From Cenococcum geophilum (taxonomy: Eukaryota), in assembly GCA_050273025.1 (NCBI GenBank), contig CP158635.1, positions 19,592,001 through 19,656,000 on the forward strand: a stretch of 64,000 bases of DNA, read 5' to 3'. Below, piece by piece: positions 9,247 to 48,114 of the stretch. The position numbers and the translations under genes were made by a program. The notes under the pieces are model-generated. The model made no database searches. It was given only the letters and a program-made list of their open reading frames with translations, and was not told where the DNA came from. Within the stretch, counting starts at the first letter, position 1. Every line of letters starts with the position of its first letter.

Positions 9247-12200
9247 TGTTATAGAGTAAGTATAAGCGACGATAATATATAGCAAGGTAGATATTATTAA
9301 GCTATGTACATGAACTATATAAGGAGGTCAAGACGTTATATAAGGAAAGAAGGTAGGAGAACGGGAAGAAAGGGTATATATCGTTAACTTAGTTGCTTAG
9401 TTAACACGTATATGGGCAAAATAGGGTTTAGGTCGTAGTCCTGGCAGAACTTAATAGAATTTAGTAGAACTTGGCAGAATATGGCAGAATGCCGTAGATT
9501 GCCGTTAGATTGCTATTTCACGGTTAGTTTCTAATTGCTAAGTTAGTAGAAATAGGTGGACGTGTGCAAGGTGTTACGGGGGTGTCCTATAACAGTACCC
9601 CCCCTTTAAACTTAAGCTTTTGCGAGATAGGGCTATAGTAGTTCTAGGTAGAGTTCGTGAAAGTCTTTTGCGGCTTATATAAGTCCTATAGAGTTAACGG
9701 GTTCCTATAAGGACTTAGTAAAGCCTCTCCATTTTATAAGATATATATATTAGCGTTTCCGTTTATCGTACTTAATATCATTAATTCTTTTAATAAAGTA
9801 CTTGTTCTTACTATCTACTTCAACTAGTAGGGGAGGTTCTTATATCTGTTTAGGCAGGGCGTCTAATATAGGGGTAGTAGGGTGGAGGACTAACGTATGG
9901 AATACGGGGTGGATTTTAACCGTATTAGGGAGCTTCAGTTGGTAGGTATAAGGAGAGATAACCTTTTCAACCTTATAAGGGCCAGCGTTCTTTTAATTAA
10001 GTTTCTTAGTAGGTTGTTTCGTGTTTAGATTTCTTATATCTAGCCAAATAAAATTACTAATTTAGTAGGCCGGTGCTGGGGTTTATTTCTTATTCGCTAC
10101 GGCTTTATAGACAGATTAAGCCTATATTATCTTATTAGTAAGGAACTGTTATAGTTCCTCTATCTTCTTTATAAATTTATTTACTTCTATAACTTATAAG
10201 GCGTAATAAGCGGGGTAAGGAATATTACTAAAGGGTTCAAAACCTATTTATAGGTACTAGCCGTAATTAGCTAGGAACGGGGAGACTTTCGTGGTTTCTA
10301 AGACGGAATTATTTATAGTAAACTCAGCAAATATGAGCTAGTTAATCCAGTTATCCTATAAATACGACGTATATATCCAAATATACTATTCTATTATAGC
10401 ATTTACGCGTTCTATTTGGCCATCCGTTTCTAGGTAATACGCAGTAGATAATAGTGCTTTAATATAGAGTTAAGTAGTTAGTTCTTTCTAGAATGCTAAG
10501 ACAAACTAGCTGCCTTTATCGGAGATAATTATTTTAGGGAGTCCGTGGAGTTTCTATACGTAATCTAGGAATAATTAGGTAACGGTAGGCATTAACATAT
10601 TAGGGTAGGCGATTAAGTATCTTATTTTAGATAGTCGGTTTATAACTACTATAATGTTTATGCAGCCTCTACTCTTAGAAAGGTTAATAATAAAGTTAAT
10701 TAAGATATCCTTTTATCTTCGGTCCGGAACAGGTAGTGGCTTTAAAAGGCTGTTATACGTCTTATGCGAGGCCTTAGCTTATTAGTAGGTGTGGCAGCTA
10801 GAGACATACCTTCGTGTTATATTATATATATTCGGCCAATAATACTCCCGTTAGAGTAGTTCTAGGGTCTTTTTTTAGCCTGGGTGGCCAGCAATAGGTA
10901 GATTATGTACGTGTTTAAGGAGTTTAAGCTTAAGCTTATCGTAATTAGGGATAACTAGACAGTTTTAGTAATACAAGCGGTTTCCGTAAGCTTCGCATTT
11001 ACTTAGAGAAATCTTTTTAGAGCGTCTGATGCCATCTTATATTAGCTTAAGCATCTCTTAGATAAACTTATTATTTGGGTATTCGTTAACTATAATCTAT
11101 TTAATTAATCAATTAGTTATTTTAAGGACGTATACTATAAGATCTTTAGTAGGAGGGTTAAATAGTTTAGGGCGAAGTAGGGTCTAATTTTGGTAAGAGC
11201 GCGCTTCTTCTAGGGCTAGCGCGTCTTGCGAGCCTTAGGTTAGGGCATTAGGCTTCTAACCTTAGACGCCTAAGCGGTATATAATTAAGAATCGGAAACG
11301 AGACAGATATTCTAACTAGCGGGCCTAATAATGACTTAGCTGTTTTGTAGTTATAAAGTATTATAGGTTCTTATAGTTGCTAAGGACCTTAATTGGAAAT
11401 CTAGCGCCTTCTAGTTTGGGTTGCCATTATTTAAAATATCTAATAATAGCTAACAATTCCTTATCGTAGATCTCATAGTTGCATTCGGCTAGGCTTAGTT
11501 ATTTTAAGAAGTATACTACAGGGTGTAATACTCTATCCTCGTTATATTAAGATAGGATGCCTCCAGTAACGTAGTTAGATAAGTTGGCTTCTATAATACT
11601 TATTTAGTTTGGGTTAAAGTATTAGAGCATGGGCGCAGTAATAAATATAACCTTTAGATAGGTAAAGGCCTTTTTATATTTCTTATTAAAGATAAAGACT
11701 TTATCCTTTTGGGTTAGAGCTATAAGGGGTAAAGCTAGGGCGGAGAAGTTATTAATAAACCGTTGGTAGAAATTAGCGAATTCTATAAAGGCTCTTACAT
11801 CCTTAACGTTCTTAGGTTCTTGCCAGTTTACAATTACTTCGATTTTCTTTAGGTCTATTTATATACCGTTCGTAGAAATAAGGAGTCTAAGGTATAGGAC
11901 TTCCGTTTTATGGAACTCGTATTTATCTATATCTAATTATAAACCAGCTCTGTGCAGGGCTTATAGGACAAGGTTAATATATTTCCGATATTCGGTTAGG
12001 TTATTACTATATATTAGGATGTCGTTAATATAAGCAGTATAGAAGATGTCTAGGTAGGGGCGCAGGGTGTTATTTATACAATGTTAAAACGAGCTTAGAG
12101 TGTTTACGAGGCTAAAGGGTGTTACTAAATACTTAAATAGTCCATATTAGGTACGAAATGTAATAAGCTATTTGTCCCCTTTTATAATATAGAGACGGTT

Positions 12201-15162
12201 AAATATAGAGATAATATTAAGCTTCGTATAGTAATAAGCCTTACTTAGTTAGTTTAGCGTCTCTTATATTAATGGAATTGGATATTAGTTCTTAACGGTA
12301 ACGGCGTTAAGAGCTCGGTAGTCTATATAGAAGCGCAGGCCGCCACTAGGTTTCTTAATGAAGATTACTAGTATAGCTATAGGCGATAAGCTTGCTCTAA
12401 TAAATCTTTTGCTTAGGTTCTCGTCTAAATACTTTTATAGCACTTAGAGTTTATTTTAGGACATCCCGTATAAGGGTCTAAATCTAGGCTGCTTTCCTTC
12501 TTTAAGTATAATCTTATAGTTATATAATTGGTGTTTTAGTAGCTTATCGGCTTCCCTTTATAAGAATGCATCTAGGCGATAATAATACTCTATTGGTACC
12601 TTTGTGGTAGGGTTAGTGTACTTCTTTAATACTAAGGCCTTCTTAATATCGGCTATCGTGACAGCGAAGATTGTATGCTTAGGTTTTTTAGTAAGTTGCG
12701 CTAGTGGGGTAGCTCTAATTATGCGGATATCTAGGGTGCCGAGCTCGCTTGGATTGTCCATAGTTTCTTATTTAGGTTTAGGTTTAGTATTAGGTACGGA
12801 ATTAGTATTAGATTTAGGTTCGGGTTCTTTAAGAATTCTTTTTATAGTGGAATACCAGTCCTTCTAGTATTTTTGTGTATAGAGCTTAAGCTTTTACTTA
12901 GCTTAAGGCGGTGTAGTGCTTAGTAATAACTTATGGAATTTAGTAGAGTTTTCGGATTATTGGTGGAATTTAGTAGAATTCCTAGGTTAATGGAATCTAG
13001 TGGATTTCTTGGGTATAGGGTGGATAGTTATAGAAATTTTAGACTAGTGGATCGTAGTGGATTTTTTAGATTTTAGTTCTGGGTCTAAGCAGCGAGTTAT
13101 AAGGTACTTCTACTTATAACAAGAGGCGGTAAATAGAAGCTTAAGGTTGTCCTAATTAATAGTTACCTTATATAGCTTTATTTAGGGTTGTCTAAGGATT
13201 ACTAAGTAACCTAGGGTGGTAACAAAAAGTTTAATTAATTCTTCGTAGTTTAGGTATTGGGGTCTTAGGAATACTACGTGGGTAATACGGCCTAAGATAG
13301 TGCGTTTACTATTAAATCCAAATACGTTAATATGCCGATTAAGGGGAATTAGGGTAAAACTATTATTTTACACAAAGATCTTGTTAATAAATCCTATGCC
13401 GCTAGCTCCTGTGTTAATTAGGATTTAAGCGTTAGCCTATTAACTATTCTGCCAAAGACGGCAGTTAATAGTTATGCTATAGTCCTAAGAGTCGGAGTTT
13501 GTGATATTAAATACGTTTAACGAGATTCTATAGTAGAGCTGTCTTGGAGAGCGACTTAGCTCTAGGACCTTCCTTTTAAAGGCAATTAGGGTGGGGTTCT
13601 TATAGGACGTTGGCTGTAGCTTCGTTTTTATAAATAGTGCTTACTAGATATAGGGCTGGAACTAGGTAGAGATTAGGGACGGTAACCGGAAGATCAATGC
13701 GGTGAACGGCTGCTAGTATTAGCCGTTCGTAATTTATGTTTAGGTATAGGGACGGAGCAGTAGTTAGAAAGGTAGGAGCTACTTCTATATTTAAAGCAGA
13801 GGCCTAGCTTAATGCGTTATTCTTATTTAGAGGACCCTAGTAGGGCGTACCCTAGGGTCCTAGTGTTAATATCCATAGCGTTAGAGTGCTTAGGCTAAAA
13901 CAATAACTTAGTAGATATTTACGGGGTTGCCGTATTATATCGTGGAGCGGGCTTCGGTGTTAGGCGTAGTATATTATTATATTGTTTATTAATGACGTTT
14001 ACGCAGGCATTAAGGGCTCCCGGTAGGTCTACGCCTATTAAGGAGGTTTTTAGTTTAGGGCTTAGTGATTTAATGAGGCTGTTAATTAGTGCGGAGTCGT
14101 TCTAGCCTATTTCCTTTGCGTAATAGTTAAATTTAGAGAAGTATATTAGGAAACTTTTCATTCCTTAAGTTATATAGTTTATCTTTCTTTAAGCAGTAGC
14201 TTAGCAGTTTGGGTTACTATACGTGGCTTTAAGAAGTACAACTAGGCTTTACACTAAGTTTAGCTAAAGCGGTTTAATAAGGTTAGCTGCATCTCCTCCT
14301 AGTCGACTTAGGGCGTAACAGAGTCGGTTAGCTTTAGTTAGGTAACGGTCGGCGTTACCAGTTAACTTATTTTTAAGCTGGCTTAGAAATAATTAAAGCT
14401 CTTATTATTTATTGGTGAATACTAGGGGGTCTAGTAGTTGTTTGGGTCGTTTTAGCGTAGTAACCGGCCTAGGGTAAATAGCTACTGTAGGTTTAGGGCT
14501 CGCATTCCGCGTATTTATCTCTAGAGATAGCGTTTAGTCTTAAGGTCCTAGCGTGGGTATTTTAAGGGCGCGGACTTCTTCTTAGAGGTCCTTAATTAAT
14601 TGCTAGTATCGTGCTTCTTATTCGGCTTATTATTAATTTAAAGTGGCTTGGTTCTATTTAAGGGCGTCTATAAAAGACTTCTATATCCCTACTAATTATT
14701 CTTAAAGTGCGGATATAATGCCAGCGGCCGTTATAGGGGCTTCGGGTTCGTTCTGCATATCGACGGTAGTATAGGTAGTTGACATAATATAGTGTCACGG
14801 AGTAAGTATAAGCGACGATAATATATAGCAAGGTAGATATTATTAAGCTATATATATAAACTATATAAGGAGGTTAAGACGTTGCGTAAGGAAAGAAGGT
14901 AGGAGAACGGGAAGAAAGGGTATATATTATTAACTTGGTTGCTTAGTTAATACGTGCATAGGCAGAATAGGGTTTAAGTCGTGGTCCTAGCAGAACTTAG
15001 CAGAATTTGGTGGAACTTGGTAGAATATGGCAGAATGCCGTAGATTGCCGTTAGATTGCCATTAGATTGCCGTTAAATTGCCATTTCGCGGTTAGTCTCT
15101 AATTGCTAAGTCGGTAGAAACAGGTGGATGTGTGTAAGGTATTACAGGGGTGTCCTGTAACA
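9247..15162 (-). mobile_element. Ty3/gypsy LTR retrotransposon B nested in element A, RIPed
   Basis: LTRs at 9247-9594 and 14793-15162 (TG...CA), TSD GATGG (9242-9246 and 15163-15167) and minus-strand polypurine tract at ~9598-9606. Protease LINTGASG at ~13410, RT AYINDILIY at ~12010-12036, then integrase and chromodomain at ~9650-9830. Confidence 0.95.
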
Positions 15163-18100
15163 GATGGCATCTAGCAGAAGTCTAAGAGAAAGGGAATTTA
15201 ATACTTTAGCTAGGAAGATTCCTTACGGAAGAATGCTTAAATAGATAATAGTAGTAGGAATGCCTAGAGAATACGTATCTATAGTATATTAAAAACAAAA
15301 AGCGAACTAGGTATTAGCTAAAGAATAAGCTAAGTATATAAGGATTAAGCAGCTAATAGTTAGGAAAAGTAAAGGCCTATAGGACTAGAGGGAGCCAATG
15401 GTAGAGCCTTAGACCCTTAAAGGAATTTAAGGACGACACCTAAATTTATAAGTTAAATGGCAAAATTAGCAGTTTAAAGCGCTAATAGATAGTGGAGCAA
15501 CGCGAAACTATATCTTACTAGCAGCAGTTAAAAGAATAGGATTACCTTATAGATAGAAGGAGCAATTTTACCTATTAGTTACGATTTTAGGAGATCTAAT
15601 AGTCTATAGAGGAGGGATTATTAATCTTAAAACAGGACCTATTTAGATAACTATTAAAGGAAGATAAATTGAGATATCTTTTGACATCCTACTATTAGGA
15701 AGAGATGAGGCAGTATTAGGGATGCCTTAGTTACAGGAATATAATCTAAAGATCAATTAGATTACAGGCCAAGTCGATATTAGAGATACTTAACGCCGCA
15801 AGATATAACAATAAGCTAAGTTAGTATAGTACTAAGTAGGAGTAACCTATAAGGAAATAGAGAAAGGACTAAGCTATATACTAAAGAGATACTATAAGTA
15901 CGGTAAGAAATTATAGTCACCAGAAAGTGAAAAGCTATTAGATTATATAGTATAGGACTATAAAATAGAATTAGAACTAGGAATAAGTCTAAGGTTCTTT
16001 CCAATCTATAAGCTTACTAAAGAAGAAGGTAGAGCACTAAAAGAGTTTATCTAGGAGAACTTATAAAAGGGATATATTAGACCATCGCAGTTATCAGCGG
16101 GTTATCTAGTACTGTTTATACTAAAGAAGAATAGCAAACTAAGGCTGTGTATCGACTATAGATAGTTAAACAGCATTACTTAGAAGGATAGATATCCTTT
16201 ACCCTTAATTAGCGAAATCTAAGATAGGATAGGCAACGCGCAAATCTTTATAAAGATAGACCTAAGATAGGCGTACCATTAAATTAGAATTAAGGAAGGC
16301 GACGAATAAAAGGCAGCCTTTAGGTCAAAGGAAGGACTGTATAAACTATTAGTTATACAATCTAGGCTTATAAATGCACCAGTAACGTTCTAGAAACGTA
16401 TTAATAAAATATTAGAAGAACACTTAGATGAATTTGTTATAGTATATCTCGACGATATTATTATTTACTTAATAACTAAGGAAGAACACGGAGAGCATAT
16501 TAAATAGGTTTTAAAAAGACTATAAGAAGAACAGATGCTAGTAGCAATTAAGAAATACGAGTTCTTTACTAGGAAGACCGATTTTGTCGGATTTATTATT
16601 AAACTAGGCCAACTAAGTATAGATCTAAAGAAGATTGAGGCTATAGTGAATTGGTAAAAACTAGAGAACGTTACGTAGTTAAGATTGTTCCTAGGGTTCT
16701 ATAACTACTATAGAAGGTTTATAGCGCAATAGTTAAAGGATATTAAGCTATTTACGCGGTTAATAAAGAAAGAAGAACTATAGGTATAGGGAAAGGAATA
16801 AAAAGAGCTATTTAAGCAAGTTAAAGAATTGTTTACCTAGGAGCTAGTTCTTAAAATCTATTAATTAGGATTAGAGACGGTTGTAGAGATAGATATATTA
16901 GACTATATACTAGGGGCATACTTTATATAAAAATATTAAGATAGATAGCACCTAGTAGCATATTACAGTCGGAAGATAATACCACTAGAGTTAAACTATA
17001 ATATCTATAATAAGGAGTTATTAGGTATAGTTATAGCACTAAAGAAATAGAGAGCATTTTTGTAAGGTATAAAGAAACCATTTATAGTTAAGACGGATTA
17101 TAAGAACCTAACGGGATTCCTAATAATAAAGGAACTTAACTAAAAACAAGTTAGATAGGTAGAGATGCTTATAAAATACTATTTTAAGATTTAGTATACT
17201 AAGGGTACAGACAATACATAAGTAGACGCTCTAAGTTAAAAGGCTGAACTATAAAGTAATAAAAAGCCATTAGGGGCTTTGTTGCGAAAGGATATAGACG
17301 GATTAATTAGGTATAATCATCCAAAAATTATAGCAACTTATAAAGAATTAGAAAAAGTCTACGAGATACTAAAAAGCTTTTAGGCGTAAAGAATTCTAAA
17401 AGCATAGCTAGAAGATCTATAGATGGATATATACGAAAATCGAGAAGTAAAGTATATCCTAAGAAGCATAGCAGAGCATTTTGTGGAAGATTTCTATAAG
17501 GGAATAACTTAAGGACACAATGGAGCCACGGGCCTAGTGTTAAGACTTTAGGAAGAGTACATTATTAATAAAATCTGGAATATTGTAAGAAAAGTGATAA
17601 AAGAATATCTAAATTACTAAAGGAATAAATTAATGAGGTATAAGCTATACGGAGGGCTATAACCTATTAAAATATTAAAGAGACCATAGGAGGTTATATT
17701 ATGGGACTTTATTATTAAGTTACTAAAGTTAAGAGATCCTATTACCGGATAAGATTATAACGTGATCTTAGTAATAGTAGATAAGCTTACAAAGTGGGGA
17801 TACTTTATAGCATGTATAGAAGAAATATTAGCGGAAAATATCGCTAGAATCTATATTAAAGAAGTGTTTATAAGATATAGAGCACTAAGTAAAATTATAT
17901 CGGATAGAGATCTAAGATTTATAGTAGTATTCTAGGAAGTGTTCTTAGCAGAGTAAAAAGTTTAAGTAGTAACTTCCACTATATATTATTTATAAATAGA
18001 CGGTTAAACAGAAAGACTAAATTAGACGCTAGAATAGTATCTAAGGCATTATATTAATTATACATAGAATAATTAGGTATCGCTATTACTAGTTATATAG

Positions 18101-18789
18101 TTTATATACAATATAACACCTTAAAAAGGAATAGGCATATTACTATTTAAGGCAAATTATAGATATAAGCTAAGAATATTATTGTTATTACGGTAAGTAA
18201 GGAAAATAAGTAGTATAGCTAAAGAAAGAATAAAGATGTTAATAAATCTTTATATAAACCTTATAGAATTAGTAAAAAGAGTATAAGAGAGAATAAAAAA
18301 GTACTGTAATACTAAGAGACCTAAGGGACCAGATCTTAAGGAGGGAGATAAGGTATAGCTACTATATAAAAATTTTAAGAGTTAACGACTAAGCAAGAAA
18401 TTGGACTACGTTAGACTAAGACCTTTTAAAATTACGTAGAAGATTTCACTGGTTACGTTTAAGTTAAACCTACTAGCCAAAATAAAGATTTACCCTATAT
18501 AGCACATTGTAATGCTAGAGCCAGTATATAGGAATATTAAGCCACTAGTTTACGAGGCAGATATATATAAAGGGTAAGAGGAAGACAAATAGCAAGTTTT
18601 AAAGATCGTTAGTTATAAGAATATTAACGATAAAATATAGTATAAGGTTAAGTAAATAGGCTATAATAAGACTACCTAGAAGCTACTAGAGAATTTAAAG
18701 AATATTATAAGAAAGGTATAGGAGTGTTAGAAGAAATTAGGTTAGGTAGCATTAATAAAAAAGGATCGCTAAAAAATAAGTCACCTAAG

Positions 18790-19360
18790 GGGGACCTAAG
18801 AAGAGCAGTTGCCGAACTACTTAGATTTATTTCCTTTTTTATTAGAAGAGAATCCGTTTTTTTATTGCCAAGTTCCTATAAACCTTATTCTACTAGTTTT
18901 TACTCCTTAGAATAAACCTTTTTATAACCCTTCTTAAGACGGAGTAACCGGGCGGACGCCGCGATATAGGCTTTAAGGGCCTTCTACTCTATATTATAAG
19001 AATATTCCAACTTAGCAAGAGCTTAAGATAGTTTACTATTTAGCCGCGTAGTAGTAGATTAAATATAGGACCCTAAGACAAATTAATTAGGGAACTAGAC
19101 GACTATTAAGAGTAATAGGTTGCGTATATTTAGTATTAGATATAGAGTAAACGTTATAAAATAAGTAAATATTCGCTTTAGTGCACTCTAAGTAAGAGGA
19201 CGGTTATTATAAAGATAGACTCGCCAACGCAATATAAACTAACCCCTCTTTTAAACAACAAGAACACGGAGACGGTATAATTTCACTAAGTAATAATATT
19301 GCAGCCATGGTGTGAGCACAACGTTAGGTGTATAAAGAAGAAGAAGCTTTAGGTATAATA
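18790..19360 (-). pseudogene. Antisense Cys-rich/coiled-coil ORF in the 3' region of gypsy A
   Basis: Minus strand reads MAAILLLSEIIPSPCSCCLKEGLVYIAL...SSYLECTKANI...YNV. With RIP reversed (TAT/TAC from TGT/TGC) this is C-x2-C-x6-C...C-x2-C...C. It is followed by a charged helical stretch, AYIAASARLLRLKKGYKKV. Confidence 0.5.
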
Positions 19361-20528
19361 AGTAACAATATTAACTAAATTAATTAGATGGATATTATAC
19401 CTCTAGTAAACGACTTAGAGATATTTTAAATCTTTAAGGACAAAGATAGAGAGGAGGGAGATGGTGTTATAAACGCTTTAAGTATAATATTATAACTACT
19501 TAGAGAAGAGACGGAAGAAGCTAGTTAGTTAATTTAGGTACGGCCTAGGATAGAGCCAATAGAACTATATAATGAGGAATAGTAACTAAGGTTATATAAT
19601 ATGCTATGTATTAAATAAGAGGAATAAGAGGAACTTACGTACCTTATATATAAGACGTATATTACGTATAAGAAGGATTTTATAGGAGTACGGTTGTGTA
19701 TTTAAGGACCCTTAGTCCCTACCTAGATAGTTCCTTCCTTATAGTGATTCTTAGAATATAATTAAAGTTAATCTATTAGGTAACCACTCCACCAGTTATT
19801 ATTATGTTAACGTCTTCTATATTTACATTTCCTACACACCTAGCCTATTAACAAGCCTATTATAGTTCTTGCTACAAGGTTCCGTTACAACTAGTATAGC
19901 TTAATTATATTTAGATTGGGTAAATTACCTAGCTAAAGTAGATACTAAAGGCCTGCTGCGTTAAAATTAATCTGCTAGTGCTTTAATAAATAAGTAGGAG
20001 CTTTATCCTCTTAGATAATTATATTTAGGCGATTAATCTAGTACTTAATTATAAAGGGAATAAGGATTAGAAGAAGGCACTTAGTAAGGTAGCAATACTA
20101 ATTAATACCACGTTTCTTAGCTGTACGCTTAATAGCGCCGTTTTCCTTACTTATTTAAAACTAAGGTTTCCTGCCTAGCTTATTACGAAGGCCCAGTCGT
20201 CTTAAACTAGTAGTAAGCTCCTATGCCTAATAAAGCTCTAGTTCTATCGCCTTATTAATCTTTTAAAGCTCTAGCTTTAACGCTTTCTTCTCCTCTATAG
20301 TCTTAGGCTTTTAGATTAGGTATAGCGACTTCTAATTATATAAAAAGGCGCCCTAAAATATAAATTTATTAGCCCTCTTAAATTAAGGACAAATAGCTAA
20401 CTTATTGACCTTTTCCTAAGCTAAGCGCTAGAGTTTATAGCCGCCTCTTCTATAGTGTAGAATAACGCCTGTCTTATTACTCTATATAACATTCTTCTAA
20501 TCCTTAATTATTTAATTCTTATATTATA

Positions 20529-27815: not shown

Positions 27816-28200
27816 TACTAACCTAGTACTAACCTAGGCCTTAAAAACGCGTTTAAAAAGTAGGGGCTACTACCCTAGGGAGGGTGGTATAATATATAGA
27901 CGATACCTCAATATAGGACTACACTATAGTAACTAAGACGCCTATTACGTAGGAATAGAACGCGTTTAGGTGTTTAAAATTCAGAGCAACATTACGCGAC
28001 TGCCCAGAAGTACCGATCAAACTCAAATTATGTACCTTTTCGCCCAAAATCGCGTGCGAGGGTACTCGGGGGTGGTCGCTGCGCGACCTCGTGCGGGGTT
28101 CGGGCGCGTTATCAGCAGGGGTGGCCCTAACCTCGTATTAACCCGGGTCGTAACCGCGCCAAATCAGCCCCCCCGATATGTGATAGTTATGGGGGCTCTA

Positions 28201-28576
28201 CAAGGGGGCAACATCAATGCCTCAGACGCCCCCCCTGTCAAAAACCGTGCGCAATAGGTGGTATATGCACCCGATATAGCTCCGTACGATTTCTATATAC
28301 AATTCACCACTTTATATGGCCTCCTTTCGCAAGAATTACAGCCTCACAGCGCTCATGCATCTAATCTATGTGCTTTTTAAAGTCGTCTACCTGTAGCCTT
28401 TCCCATTCTGCCCAAGTACCCCCCTACCAACATATTTTTAACTTCTCGAAGGCTCTACGAAGTATAGGTTTGTAAATATTCGAGTAGATTCGGTGGCAAA
28501 TTTTAGTGACAAATCCGCTGTAATACGCACAGATTTTGACGGGGGGGGCGTCTGAGCCATTTATGTTACCCCCTTG
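28201..28576. mobile_element. Tc1/mariner-type MITE (376 bp)
   Basis: About 55-bp TIRs (CAAGGGGGCAACATCAATGCCTCAGACGCCCCCCCTGTCAAAA... and ...TTTTGACGGGGGGGGCGTCTGAGCCATTTATGTTACCCCCTTG) with TA on both sides. No coding capacity is evident. Confidence 0.9.
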
Positions 28577-28595
28577 TATCGCCTAAGCGACAAGA

Positions 28596-43957: not shown

Positions 43958-46128
43958 ATGTCGACATCCCCAGAGCCTCTCCGTAGACCACAGGAAGCCT
44001 CCTCCCAAAGTACAGACGATGCTTCGACACACTTAACCCCATCATCGGAGTCAGACGATGACGATGGATTGACGATGGTTGGAGACAGCTACACCGGGCA
44101 AAGCTTTCGCATGAAAAGTCTATCCTCGACCAGCAGAGAAAGAGTTAGAAAAGGCAATACTGCGGAGGGCCCAAAAAAATACGATGGGGAATATGAAGGA
44201 GGCGAAGATGAAAGTACACAGTTTCTGGAGGAATCCCGCCGGCTATCGCACAGCTCGTCGGTCCAGACCTTTGAGTTGTATACACCAGACGAAGATCGTT
44301 CAGTGTTGAAGAAGCTTGATAGGAAACTGGTGTTGTTCATGGCCTTATTATATCTGCTCAGCTTTCTAGATCGGTCGAGTAAGTGGTTTTTTAGCTTTTA
44401 CGTTCGTGGATTTGCTTTATAACAACCATGATTGGGATTGAATCCTCGATGGTTGGCAGATTGACAGGGGCTTGACAGAGCTGACAAAACAATAGACATT
44501 GGGAATGCTAGAATCGCTGGTCTGGAAAAGGACCTTAACTTGAGTTCACGGCAGTATGAGTGGCTGTTGACCGCTTTCTACATCACTTATATCGTTTTTG
44601 AATGGATGACATTGATGTATGACCTTTTCACATCCCTGCATCATCCCGTCATGTACGAAAATATTGCTGTATTACAGCTGCGTGTAGATCTCGGGTCATG
44701 GCCCTCTATTTGGCTGTTTGCATATGGCACTGAACTACCTACTGACCGCTCCCAAGGTATCGAATTATACCTCCTCATATCTATATATCCCTATGCGTTT
44801 TATCTTGGGGACTGATAGCATCGCTTCAGTCAGTGACGACATCTTTTGGATCCCTATTAATATTAAGAGCCCTTCTTGGTGTCAGCGAGGCAGCCTTCGG
44901 ACCCGGAGTTCCGTTCTACTTATCGTTCTTCTTCCGCCGCAACGAGCTCGCATTTAGAACTGGTTTGTTCATCTCTGCGGCTCCACTAGCTACATCCTTC
45001 GCCAGCAGTCTTGCTTGGCTCATCACTAAGCTTGGTCAAGACGGACCTCTTGCACCGTGGCGGCTTTTACTACTTGTCGAAGGCTTTCCTAGTGTGATTG
45101 TTGCGGCCTGGGCCTGGGAGTTCATCCCGGATAGTCCTGGCACGGCATGCTTCCTAAGCCCGAGACTAAGGGATGTTGCCGTGATGAGACTCAGCCAAGA
45201 AAATGAGGTATATGACGGGGATAACATGGAGAAAAATGAGTTTTCGGCGGAGAAGAAGATGGGCGTTAATAAACGGGAGGTTTTCCAGACGCTCATGGAT
45301 CCTAAGTGTTATCTCACAGCCGTAAGTATCCCTCATCAACGTTGGGATCATAAAATCAACCACAACCTTTCGATTTCAGCACGTCATTGCGTTAATTTAC
45401 GGGCTGACATTTCAAATAGCTCATGTTCTTCAGTTGCAACGTAGCATTCAGCTCACTGCCTGTATTCCTCCCAACCATAATCAGGGAGTACGTCCTCAAA
45501 CCCCAGGTTATATGAACAGTTTACTAAGTCTCTTCTCAGCATGGGTCACACAGCCCTCTATTCTCAGGCCCTCTCCGCACCCCCTTATATATTCTCTTTT
45601 GCTGTCGTCCTCCTAACTGCGTACCTGTCCGATCGTCTCCAAACTCGCAGCACGTTCATTATCTTCCATGCTATCCTAGGCGCAAGCGGTTACTCTCTTA
45701 TTGCTCTTGCAGGTTTTCGACGTTGGGATCATGTGTGGCGATACCTCGGAATCTACCCTGCCGCCGCAGGGTTCTTCTCTGCCATTACTATTATCATCAC
45801 TTGGACCATTAACAACCAGGAATCGGACTCGAAAAAGGGAACTGGCATGGCCATGCTGAACATTATTGGCCAGTGTGGTCCATTGGTTGGTACGAGACTA
45901 TATCCGGATACGGATAAGCCGTACTACGTACGAGGCATGTCGATTTGTGCGCTGTTCATGCTCGCTGTTGCGGGTTTGGCGTTTCTCCTAAGGATTGTAT
46001 TGAAGAGGGCGAATGGCTGGACTAGAGATAGCAGAAATAAAGAGGGAAGCAACCAAGAGGACGGTGTGCCTCTCGTGAGCGGAGGAAAGGTCAAGAGGGA
46101 GAAGAAAGCATTCTATTTCATGTTATAG
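43958..46128 (+). CDS. MFS transporter, anion:cation symporter/allantoate-permease-like family
   Basis: KKLDRKLV..MALLYLLSFLDRS(N)IGNARIAGL, RALLGVSEAAFGPG, WRLLLLVEGFP and YLSDRLQTR. Approximate introns at 44379-44495, 44617-44756, 45322-45419 and 45488-45539. Confidence 0.92.
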
Positions 46129-46434
46129 CACATATCTTCCTGCAAAATAGAAAACTCCCTGTATGATTATTATATATATTGTTCCACTCCAGGCTCATAA
46201 CATTTCGTTTGTTGTGGACCAGATCATTGCGCCGCCGGAGTCCGAATTCGGCCTGATAAGCGGTATTTGATGACGTTTCCGCCGAGAACGGATTCTTTCT
46301 ACCGCCATGCTTGTAGAATAGCCTATCTTATCGCCCATCGACGACATACACCAGTCAATCCGGTTCTAATTACCGTGTTCATATTTTCCCCTTTCCGAAA
46401 GTCACGTGAAAGCACCTGAACCTGATCCTCACAG

Positions 46435-46470
46435 TTATCTCATAAATCAGACGTCTGATTTATGAGATAA
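46435..46470. mobile_element. Perfect 36-bp palindrome flanked by an 8-bp direct repeat (minimal TIR-only insertion)
   Basis: TTATCTCATAAATCAGAC-GTCTGATTTATGAGATAA, with CCTCACAG at 46427-46434 and 46471-46478. Confidence 0.75.
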
Positions 46471-46623
46471 CCTCACAGCAAAAAAGCCCTAGATAGAAAA
46501 AATACGAGGAATCATGAATATACCCTTTCACCCTTCATACTGAGAGAAGCTGTATATCTCACATAGTCAGTCAATATACAATGCTCCGCCTCTTTAAAAG
46601 TAGTAGTTTTATGTATATAGTGG

Positions 46624-47767
46624 TTATCTCAGTAAGCGACTCAGACGGCAAAGGCAAACTGAAGGCGCACTCACTAATACTAAAGTATCACTAGTCTCCA
46701 TCCTAAAAACCGCCACTTTCTTTTAACCAATCAGCTATCTACCGACCTTAAGTTTGCCCTGCCGTCTGAGGGCCTATGGTGCGAGCTTTAGTGAGGCTCG
46801 ACTTTAATTTTCGCAATTTTGTATAAGAGACACTCTCTCCCATATATTTAACTCCTTAACAATACCTTTTTAACCTAATAAGCTAATAAGTTAAATTAGA
46901 CCAGTCTCCTCTATAATCGATTAGATTTTTATTAAAAAATAAATCTGTTAACTAGGTAAAGATTTAGGTAGATTTTGCGATATTTTGTAACAAAATCGCG
47001 CCTAGGCGAGGCTCTAGCAAGACAGCATTAAAATCACCTTTTTCACTGCCGTATCTCAACCCTTTTATAACGTCTAGTTATTATAAAAATACTACAAGGT
47101 AGGAGCTCTTTAGCTGCTCTATCTATTGCATTAAATAACGACATTGTAGCTATATTATATAAAATATTAGATATGGGTAGTCGGTCGCATTTTATCTAAA
47201 ATCATTAAAATACACCTTTTTTACTGCCGTATCTCGACCCTTTTATAACGTCTAGTTATTATAAAAATACTATAAGGTAAGAGCTCTTTAGCTTCTCTAT
47301 CTATTGCATTAAATAACGACGTTGTGGCTATATTATATAAAATATTAGATATAGGCAGTCGGTCGCATTTTATCTAAAACTCGTCGCTTTAAGTCGACGA
47401 GTCGGCACAATATGTTGATTTGATATTTTTCTACCTATAATTTTAACAACTTACTTTTATACTATAGGGTTTTTATATAAATATTCTTAAAAAGTAGCTT
47501 TAGTTATATAATCGATTAGATTTTTAAAAATACGTTATTTAGGGTAGAGGTAGGGCATTAAAAAAGGTAAAAAAAGATTTTAGTCTTGAATCGACCCTCA
47601 TATATTTTCGCACTAAAGGCCCTCAGACGGCAACCGAGACAGCATTGTTAAGTAATCCTAACTAGCCCAAATTCTATCACACTAGTAAGGGTCTGGTAAA
47701 GCTATGCTACTTAAGTACTAGCGAGATTTACTGTCTTGGTTGCCGGCTGAGTCGCTTACTGAGATAA
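46624..47767. mobile_element. Non-autonomous TIR element (1,144 bp) with 8-bp TSD, superfamily unassigned
   Basis: TIR TTATCTCAGTAAGCGACTCAG(A/C)CGGCAA at both ends and TSD TATAGTGG (46616-46623 and 47768-47775). The interior is AT-rich, RIP-like and without ORFs. Confidence 0.9.
47026..47379. repeat. ~177-bp tandem duplication inside the TIR element
   Basis: Copies at 47026-47201 and 47203-47379 are nearly identical, differing mostly by C/T and G/A transitions. Confidence 0.92.
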
Positions 47768-48114
47768 TATAGTGGTGTTCTTTGGGACGCTTTGACCGGG
47801 TCTTGGACAAGACGGGAGCTCCAAACGTAGCACTAGCGCCACGGCCATCACATGCACCTCTCTTCCTCTAGCCACCGCAATTCTCATCCTTTTGGCTTCG
47901 GGTTCTTGAGATTCTACCTATCCACCTATTATGTTCCAAGGACTAAAGCACATGGGTGAGGTTGCAAAAAGCTTGTTTGCTGATGAGTGACGTCAATTCT
48001 CGCACGCCTGCATGTCGCACGACTGTTCTGGAGCATCATGGAATGAAAAGAAGTTGATCAGAAACATTACCACTAATTTCAAGGAGGCTGTGATCCCTTG
48101 AAAAGGAAGTTGAA

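Follow-up and report, generated by a model that had tools for sequence, protein, structure and literature searches.

Drosophila P elements leave footprints that keep up to about 17 nt of each terminal repeat, and the ends of hAT transposons begin with CAG/TAG-type sequence. One study of the P element (PMC7776569) describes an enzyme that makes 8-bp duplications and cuts the 5′ strand at 17 nt within its inverted repeat, a cut position that leaves repeat sequence on the flanks of the donor site. The enzymes of hAT, Transib and MULE elements are described in another paper (PMC5499845) as forming hairpins on the flanking DNA, so that hAT footprints would consist of flank bases and not of 18 nt per end. 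Zisupton/Dileera (KDZ) elements are fungal DNA transposons that also make 8-bp duplications (PMC12730594). Excision footprints varied in a comparison paper on rice, and the literature searched held nothing specific on published footprints that retain the ends of the repeats. Miniature elements (MITEs), together with derivatives of interrupted gap repair, form a further known kind, being non-coding and flanked by inverted ends and a target duplication, with an interior that was lost from a longer element.

The structure considered here lies in a 64-kb stretch of the Cenococcum geophilum genome, referred to below as the window, where positions 46427-46478 read CCTCACAG / TTATCTCATAAATCAGAC + GTCTGATTTATGAGATAA / CCTCACAG. 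The left copy of an 8-bp target-site duplication (TSD), CCTCACAG at 46427-46434, is followed by an 18-nt terminus on the forward strand, TTATCTCATAAATCAGAC (46435-46452), which matches the canonical end of a transposon group in 18 of 18 positions. Its exact inverted copy (GTCTGATTTATGAGATAA, 46453-46470, reverse strand) abuts it with no interior at all, and the right copy of the TSD, again CCTCACAG, occupies 46471-46478. The perfect palindrome is 36 bp long (46435-46470); a repeat finder reports arms at 46434-46452 and 46453-46471, 19 nt each, 100% complementary and with a spacer of 0 nt, as one further pair, the G that ends the left CCTCACAG copy and the C that begins the right one, lengthens the palindrome to 38 bp. 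Direct reading and the repeat finder thus bear out the earlier note, which had described a spacer-less 36-bp palindrome exactly bracketed by 8-bp direct repeats. An MFS-type gene (44746-46128) lies on one side of the site and a SacI-domain gene (from 48094) on the other, and the DNA of the window is eukaryotic and resembles that of fungi, with AT-rich blocks. With up to three mismatches allowed, the 18-mer TTATCTCATAAATCAGAC occurs in the 64-kb window at these two sites only. Traits of two known kinds of sequence are combined here, those of a MITE (short, non-coding, with inverted ends and a target duplication) and those of an excision footprint (both CCTCACAG copies kept, with leftover terminal element bases between them).

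Elsewhere in the window, a search that tolerated C-to-T and G-to-A decay detected no degraded arms. The stretch at 46554-46572, which resembles an arm, was considered as a third end and rejected, its edit distance of 5 being at chance level, with 117 such sites in the window and 105-146 in each of 12 shuffles. Other element-like stretches are present in the window. Positions 28194-28583 have 63-nt inverted ends, 84% complementary and 264 nt apart, with no obvious duplication, and contain CTCAGACGCCCCCCC, a sequence reminiscent of the family's TCAGACG motif. Four further stretches (9255-11628, 13020-15162, 17367-19890 and 27965-28190) are 80-92% identical to metagenome loci; three match interiors of elements with canonical ends (L045, L015 and L096) and one matches the flank of L067. 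Most of these are situated in the AT-rich, strand-skewed left part of the window, and no recognisable arms were found at the four, transitions allowed.

The abundance of the 18-nt terminus became apparent from metagenome contigs, which were scanned for TTATCTCATAAATCAGAC in 12 of 64 parts. At least 124 arm copies were obtained in at least 123 loci, with an estimate of about 680 stretches in all. The eight bases outside the arm differ in 123 of the 124 listed copies, the one repeat being the same locus in two samples, and grouping of the interiors gives 35 clusters, with 43, 21 and 18 members in the three largest and 27 singletons. Such different flanks and so many interiors mark TTATCTCATAAATCAGAC as the common tip of many transposon families. 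Among the listed ends, conservation reaches about position 24 (95% have C at position 20 and 85% have G at position 24), and the two ends of an element are unlike at position 19, so that a C-type end (arm followed by CCC or CCT) can be told from a G-type end (arm followed by GCT). At positions 19-24 the palindrome reads GTCTGA; the family consensus S-C-Y-C-S-G is absent there, with T and A standing where family ends have C (position 20) and G (position 24).

A mate end and an 8-bp duplication were recovered for seven listed elements of 159, 175, 215, 447, 701, 1086 and 1447 bp, the duplication being perfect in six and 7/8 in one. In addition, arms that face each other on one contig were found twice, at distances of 8638 and 8661 bp and with 7/8 duplications (CCCCTGAG/CCCCCGAG and CCTGTTTC/CCTATTTC) that each differ by a transition; these are full-length copies with transition-type decay. 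There is a weak target preference for C or G at positions 1 and 8 and T at position 3, to which CCTCACAG conforms. The arms of the palindrome are thus the exact termini of a group that makes duplications of the very length seen here. Internal-deletion derivatives are common in the group: elements of 1.1-1.3 kb retain about 230-270 nt per end of the 8.6-kb form, and those of 159-218 bp (159, 175, 215 and 218) retain 20-34 recognisable nt per end. The genome to which the window belongs holds, at the least, real family members with this arm. A contig of single-copy depth (37.6) from one public run, X1, joins 46453 to 46453 through 38 other letters, and by eye 35 of those 38 match the interior of the L018 cluster beside a G-type end; the joint may come from another place in the genome, where a putative relative of 75 bp would consist of arm, 38 nt and arm.

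Some arms directly adjoin fragments of other arms, their flanks ending in ...AAATCAGAC, ...GGTCTGATT and ...CTCAGACGTG (L084, L113 and L109), pointing to nested insertions within element ends or beside them. Open reading frames beside some arms were considered as genes of the elements and proved to belong to the host (DEAH helicase, G-patch, ATG11, UreD and others). The terminal sequence TTATCTCATAAATCAGAC was found in no paper of the literature searched, nor was a published name found there for transposons that combine these ends with DUF6589, and the family behind the palindrome appears to be unnamed in that literature.

DUF6589 (PF20231) is the domain of a protein encoded by the long elements of the largest cluster, where the gene starts about 1.25 kb inside the C-type end. 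A relative with 28% identity occupies the same position in L006, a member of a different family (the loci concerned are L008/L009, L050/L051, L010 and L006). The protein family has 1148 representatives at E ≤ 0.001, with intact forms of 750-1060 aa among them. It is fungal, and Basidiomycota is the most frequent phylum of its three top-scoring Atlas clusters. PF20231 was the sole Pfam family to pass in 5 + 12 DUF6589 proteins, and forms of 719-1062 aa have no other; the THAP, P-transposase, hAT dimerisation and KDZ Pfam families were found in none of these 17. A profile search of solved structures by sequence returned nothing useful (one match, E 0.45), and Foldseek by itself was weak, with a best E of 0.025 for an AlphaFold model of one of the proteins (P0030, pLDDT 80.4). 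Comparison of this model with known structures gave a best 45 rows made up entirely of transposases or RAG1, led by Hermes (Z 9.8, rmsd 6.9, 288 aligned) and the P element transposase (two matches, Z 8.7 over 373 aligned residues and Z 8.4 over 352), and including Tn5 (7.6), ISCth4 (6.6), Transib (6.2) and RAG1 (5.8). The model places candidate catalytic D, D and E residues on strands 295-307 and 457-461 and helix 711-729, D300 being on strand 1, D462 after strand 4 and E716 on the helix that follows; they are conserved in 32 of 34, 59 of 63 and 62 of 63 sequences, respectively. Judging from this modelled fold, we conclude that the DUF6589 protein is in all probability a DDE cut-and-paste transposase. 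DUF6589 appears, moreover, to be the transposase of a widespread fungal transposon group with full-length copies of 8.6 kb. In the literature searched the term occurs in one paper, in which the domain is enriched in pathogenic fungi and nothing further is said, and no paper there names DUF6589 as the transposase of this group.

With the P element, the group shares 8-bp duplications and a fold similarity of Z 8.7 / 8.4 for the model, and P element chemistry can leave about 17-18 nt per end between intact duplications, as in the palindrome. It differs from the P element in its unrelated ends and its fungal host, THAP and P-transposase Pfam families went undetected in 17 proteins, and a staggered cut would have to be supposed for the DUF6589 group. 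With hAT elements such as Hermes and Ac/Ds, it has in common the 8-bp duplication, inverted ends, many internal-deletion derivatives and the best fold match (Hermes, Z 9.8), but a hAT dimerisation domain was not detected in the 17 DUF6589 proteins, and the ends begin with TTATC and not with the CAG/TAG type of hAT. The Z values for Hermes and the P element lie within 1 of each other, so that the fold cannot separate a P-like staggered cutter from a Hermes-like hairpin maker. KDZ elements resemble the group as fungal DNA transposons with 8-bp duplications (PMC12730594), but the KDZ transposase Pfam family was not found in the DUF6589 proteins. The size series of the listed loci, from 1.4 kb down to 159 bp, is MITE-like. 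The palindrome, in contrast to MITEs, has an interior length of zero, retains less than the conserved end and is single copy within 464 kb and 124 listed arms, and it looks like a dead end and not the founder of a MITE family.

A second member of the group is found a short way downstream. It is a non-autonomous relative of 1144 bp with variant ends (46624-47767, forward strand), which has inverted ends of 28 nt that are 96% complementary by the repeat finder and the TSD TATAGTGG at 46616-46623 and 47768-47775, which bears out the 1,144-bp element with an 8-bp TSD of the earlier note. Its ends consist of TTATCTCA, a 9-nt spacer and TCAGAC, and it carries an internal tandem duplication of 178 bp whose unit shares about 90% identity with subterminal regions of elements with canonical ends; this likeness and the variant ends place the neighbour in the transposon group of the palindrome. 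The arm of the palindrome had been described as a compressed version of the neighbour's terminal repeat. The two are indeed related, but it is the palindrome arm that is canonical and the neighbour that is an expanded variant with a 9-nt spacer. Among 131 listed ends, the spacer between TTATCTCA and TCAGAC is TAAA in 124, TGAA in 4, and GTTC, CTCG and GTTGAC in one each, and TTATCTCA and TCAGAC are kept in all the variants, which makes the arm of the palindrome the standard form and not a compressed one. The 1144-bp sequence reaches about 100-fold the depth of its flanks in all four public runs that were compared, where many contigs begin at 46624 or stop at 47767; it is a high-copy, recently mobile non-autonomous family.

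The same public runs allowed the age and the reality of the palindrome to be judged. Part of the stretch is contained in 20 of the 23 runs listed, from 11 studies, and four were compared (X1, X4, X8 and X13). In X1 and X4, which are different samples from different studies, one contig stops at 46463 and the next begins at 46442, each with 0 other letters, as expected of a 31-mer graph, in which a perfect palindrome of 38 bp forces a split. In both, the word that closes the left contig crosses the centre, and the palindrome is present in the reads of two independent samples. In X8 a single contig covers 45488-46614 colinearly and without gaps; 16 of its letters differ, 11 of them upstream of 46033, so the 52-bp structure exists there with at most 5 differences, and since the contig is unbroken, this copy is probably not a perfect palindrome. 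In X8 and X13 alike, 46614 is joined directly to 47767 and 1152 letters (1144 + 8) are left out, which is a precise empty site for the 1144-bp neighbour, and the palindrome is accordingly older than that insertion. In X13, the pieces of one contig point to the absence of 46352-46567 (216 bp, palindrome included). The edges of this gap are an 8-bp direct repeat, CAGTCAAT, at 46352-46359 and 46568-46575, and the 208-bp segment between its two copies has no inverted ends. The loss looks like a short-repeat deletion that the palindrome may have triggered, and says nothing on an empty site of the palindrome itself.

Chimeric reads can yield perfect palindromes, and an assembly fold-back, or else chance, would be a further account of the structure. 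The chance of either is negligible. The same words, the centre-crossing one included, recur in the X1 and X4 contigs, which break at the edges of the palindrome, and X8 is colinear and gap-free, observations that contradict the fold-back artefact raised beforehand. Chance would give 0.06 matches to the 18-mer, and none of 100 shuffles reached two. The earlier note had left two interpretations, an extremely small mobile unit made only of two fused ends or the scar of a larger family member. For the former, in which the 36-bp unit would itself have transposed into CCTCACAG after being mobilised in trans by the family transposase, one can cite the two exact termini, with the terminal TTATCTCA and the TCAGAC motif, the perfect 8-bp duplication and the fact that short non-coding derivatives of the family do get mobilised. 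Its arms, however, end before the conserved positions 19-24 (C at 20, 95%; G at 24, 85%), the shortest listed relative with a target duplication has 159 bp, and a transposase complex would have difficulty in bringing together two element ends that directly abut. An inverted arm directly follows the arm in 0 of the 124 listed metagenome copies, and a scan for ends paired at a distance of 16-150 bp, with up to two mismatches allowed in the duplication, run over 400,581 bases of loci and the window (464 kb), found no ends-only unit besides the palindrome of the window. With these counts, which are those of 12 of the 64 metagenome parts and the window, a mobile unit finds no support and is very unlikely. 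The palindrome is most likely a scar that a lost element left behind, as opposed to a tiny mobile unit; a scar fits arms that are the exact termini of a large family with 8-bp TSDs, and a deletion between the TCAGACG motifs, as had been suggested, is compatible with the junction. That it is the relic, left in place, of a larger element, by whichever route, we hold to be true with a probability of about 0.8.

As to the route by which such a relic would have formed, both break points lie exactly between nt 18 and 19, which suggests a process gauging its distance from the tip. In the scenario that we favour, a member of the fungal cut-and-paste group with the invariant end TTATCTCATAAATCAGAC, whose long copies of about 8.6 kb encode the DUF6589 DDE-type transposase, would have inserted at CCTCACAG, duplicating those 8 bases. 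The element would later have left the site or lost its entire interior, and the first 18 nt of each end, head to head, would have remained in place with both CCTCACAG copies. Excision may have been carried out by the family transposase through a staggered cut of the 5′ strand 18 nt inside each end, much as the P element enzyme cuts at 17 nt, with end joining that retained 18 nt per end. The analogy would draw on a P element enzyme that cuts 17 nt inside the repeat and makes 8-bp duplications (PMC7776569). It would also draw on a modelled fold that resembles the P enzyme no less well than it does Hermes. From enzymes of the Hermes kind, remnants of 18 nt per end would not be anticipated. Against excision stands the search of X1, X4, X8 and X13, in which neither a full element nor the empty-site allele with a single CCTCACAG that had been anticipated was seen at the locus. 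The 3′ tails predicted by the staggered cut are, moreover, identical and not complementary, so that joining with full retention would need fill-in at 0-2 nt of homology. No second scar was seen in the 124 listed arms and 464 kb, from which it follows that scars of 18 + 18 nt, if made by a transposase, are rare or short-lived. On balance, we put excision followed by end joining at even odds. It seems to us improbable that a staggered cut at 18 nt, made by an undescribed fungal DDE group (DUF6589), regularly leaves such a palindrome at the donor site. A relic could also have arisen with no transposase at work, if a resident and probably already short element underwent a structure-driven deletion of its interior, a possibility that we regard as rather doubtful. 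The ends would pair on single-stranded DNA, and everything beyond the perfect stem would be removed and the remainder rejoined. The C-type and G-type ends lose complementarity at nt 19, exactly at both break points, so the number 18 would be explained with no new chemistry. The stem is stable, a single-stranded fold of the stretch giving -15.2 kcal/mol against -2.8 ± 1.4 for shuffles. Relatives as short as 159, 175, 215 and 218 bp occur, and the 216-bp loss at an 8-bp repeat in X13 looks as if the palindrome were fragile. Slippage, however, would be expected to take stem and loop together between the direct repeats, giving an empty site and not a stem-only product, and no intermediate was present at the locus among the four runs. 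We know of no described pathway that would give the stem-only product by trimming a loop to zero and then religating.

By itself, the palindrome is a small scar of a known kind, a transposon relic or footprint. Its wider interest comes from what it exposes, namely a very widespread fungal transposon group in which many families share one identical 18-base tip, and whose transposase is filed merely as a domain of unknown function (DUF6589). For genome annotation, ends-only relics of this sort mark former insertion sites that are missed by repeat finders. The exact retention of 18 + 18 nt also yields a testable prediction of the cut site, whether the cut was made by the enzyme or in subsequent repair. 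If the palindrome is indeed the regular product of an 18-nt staggered cut, P-element-like cleavage would have arisen in a group that is not part of the P superfamily, and the position of the cut could be read from the scar to the base.
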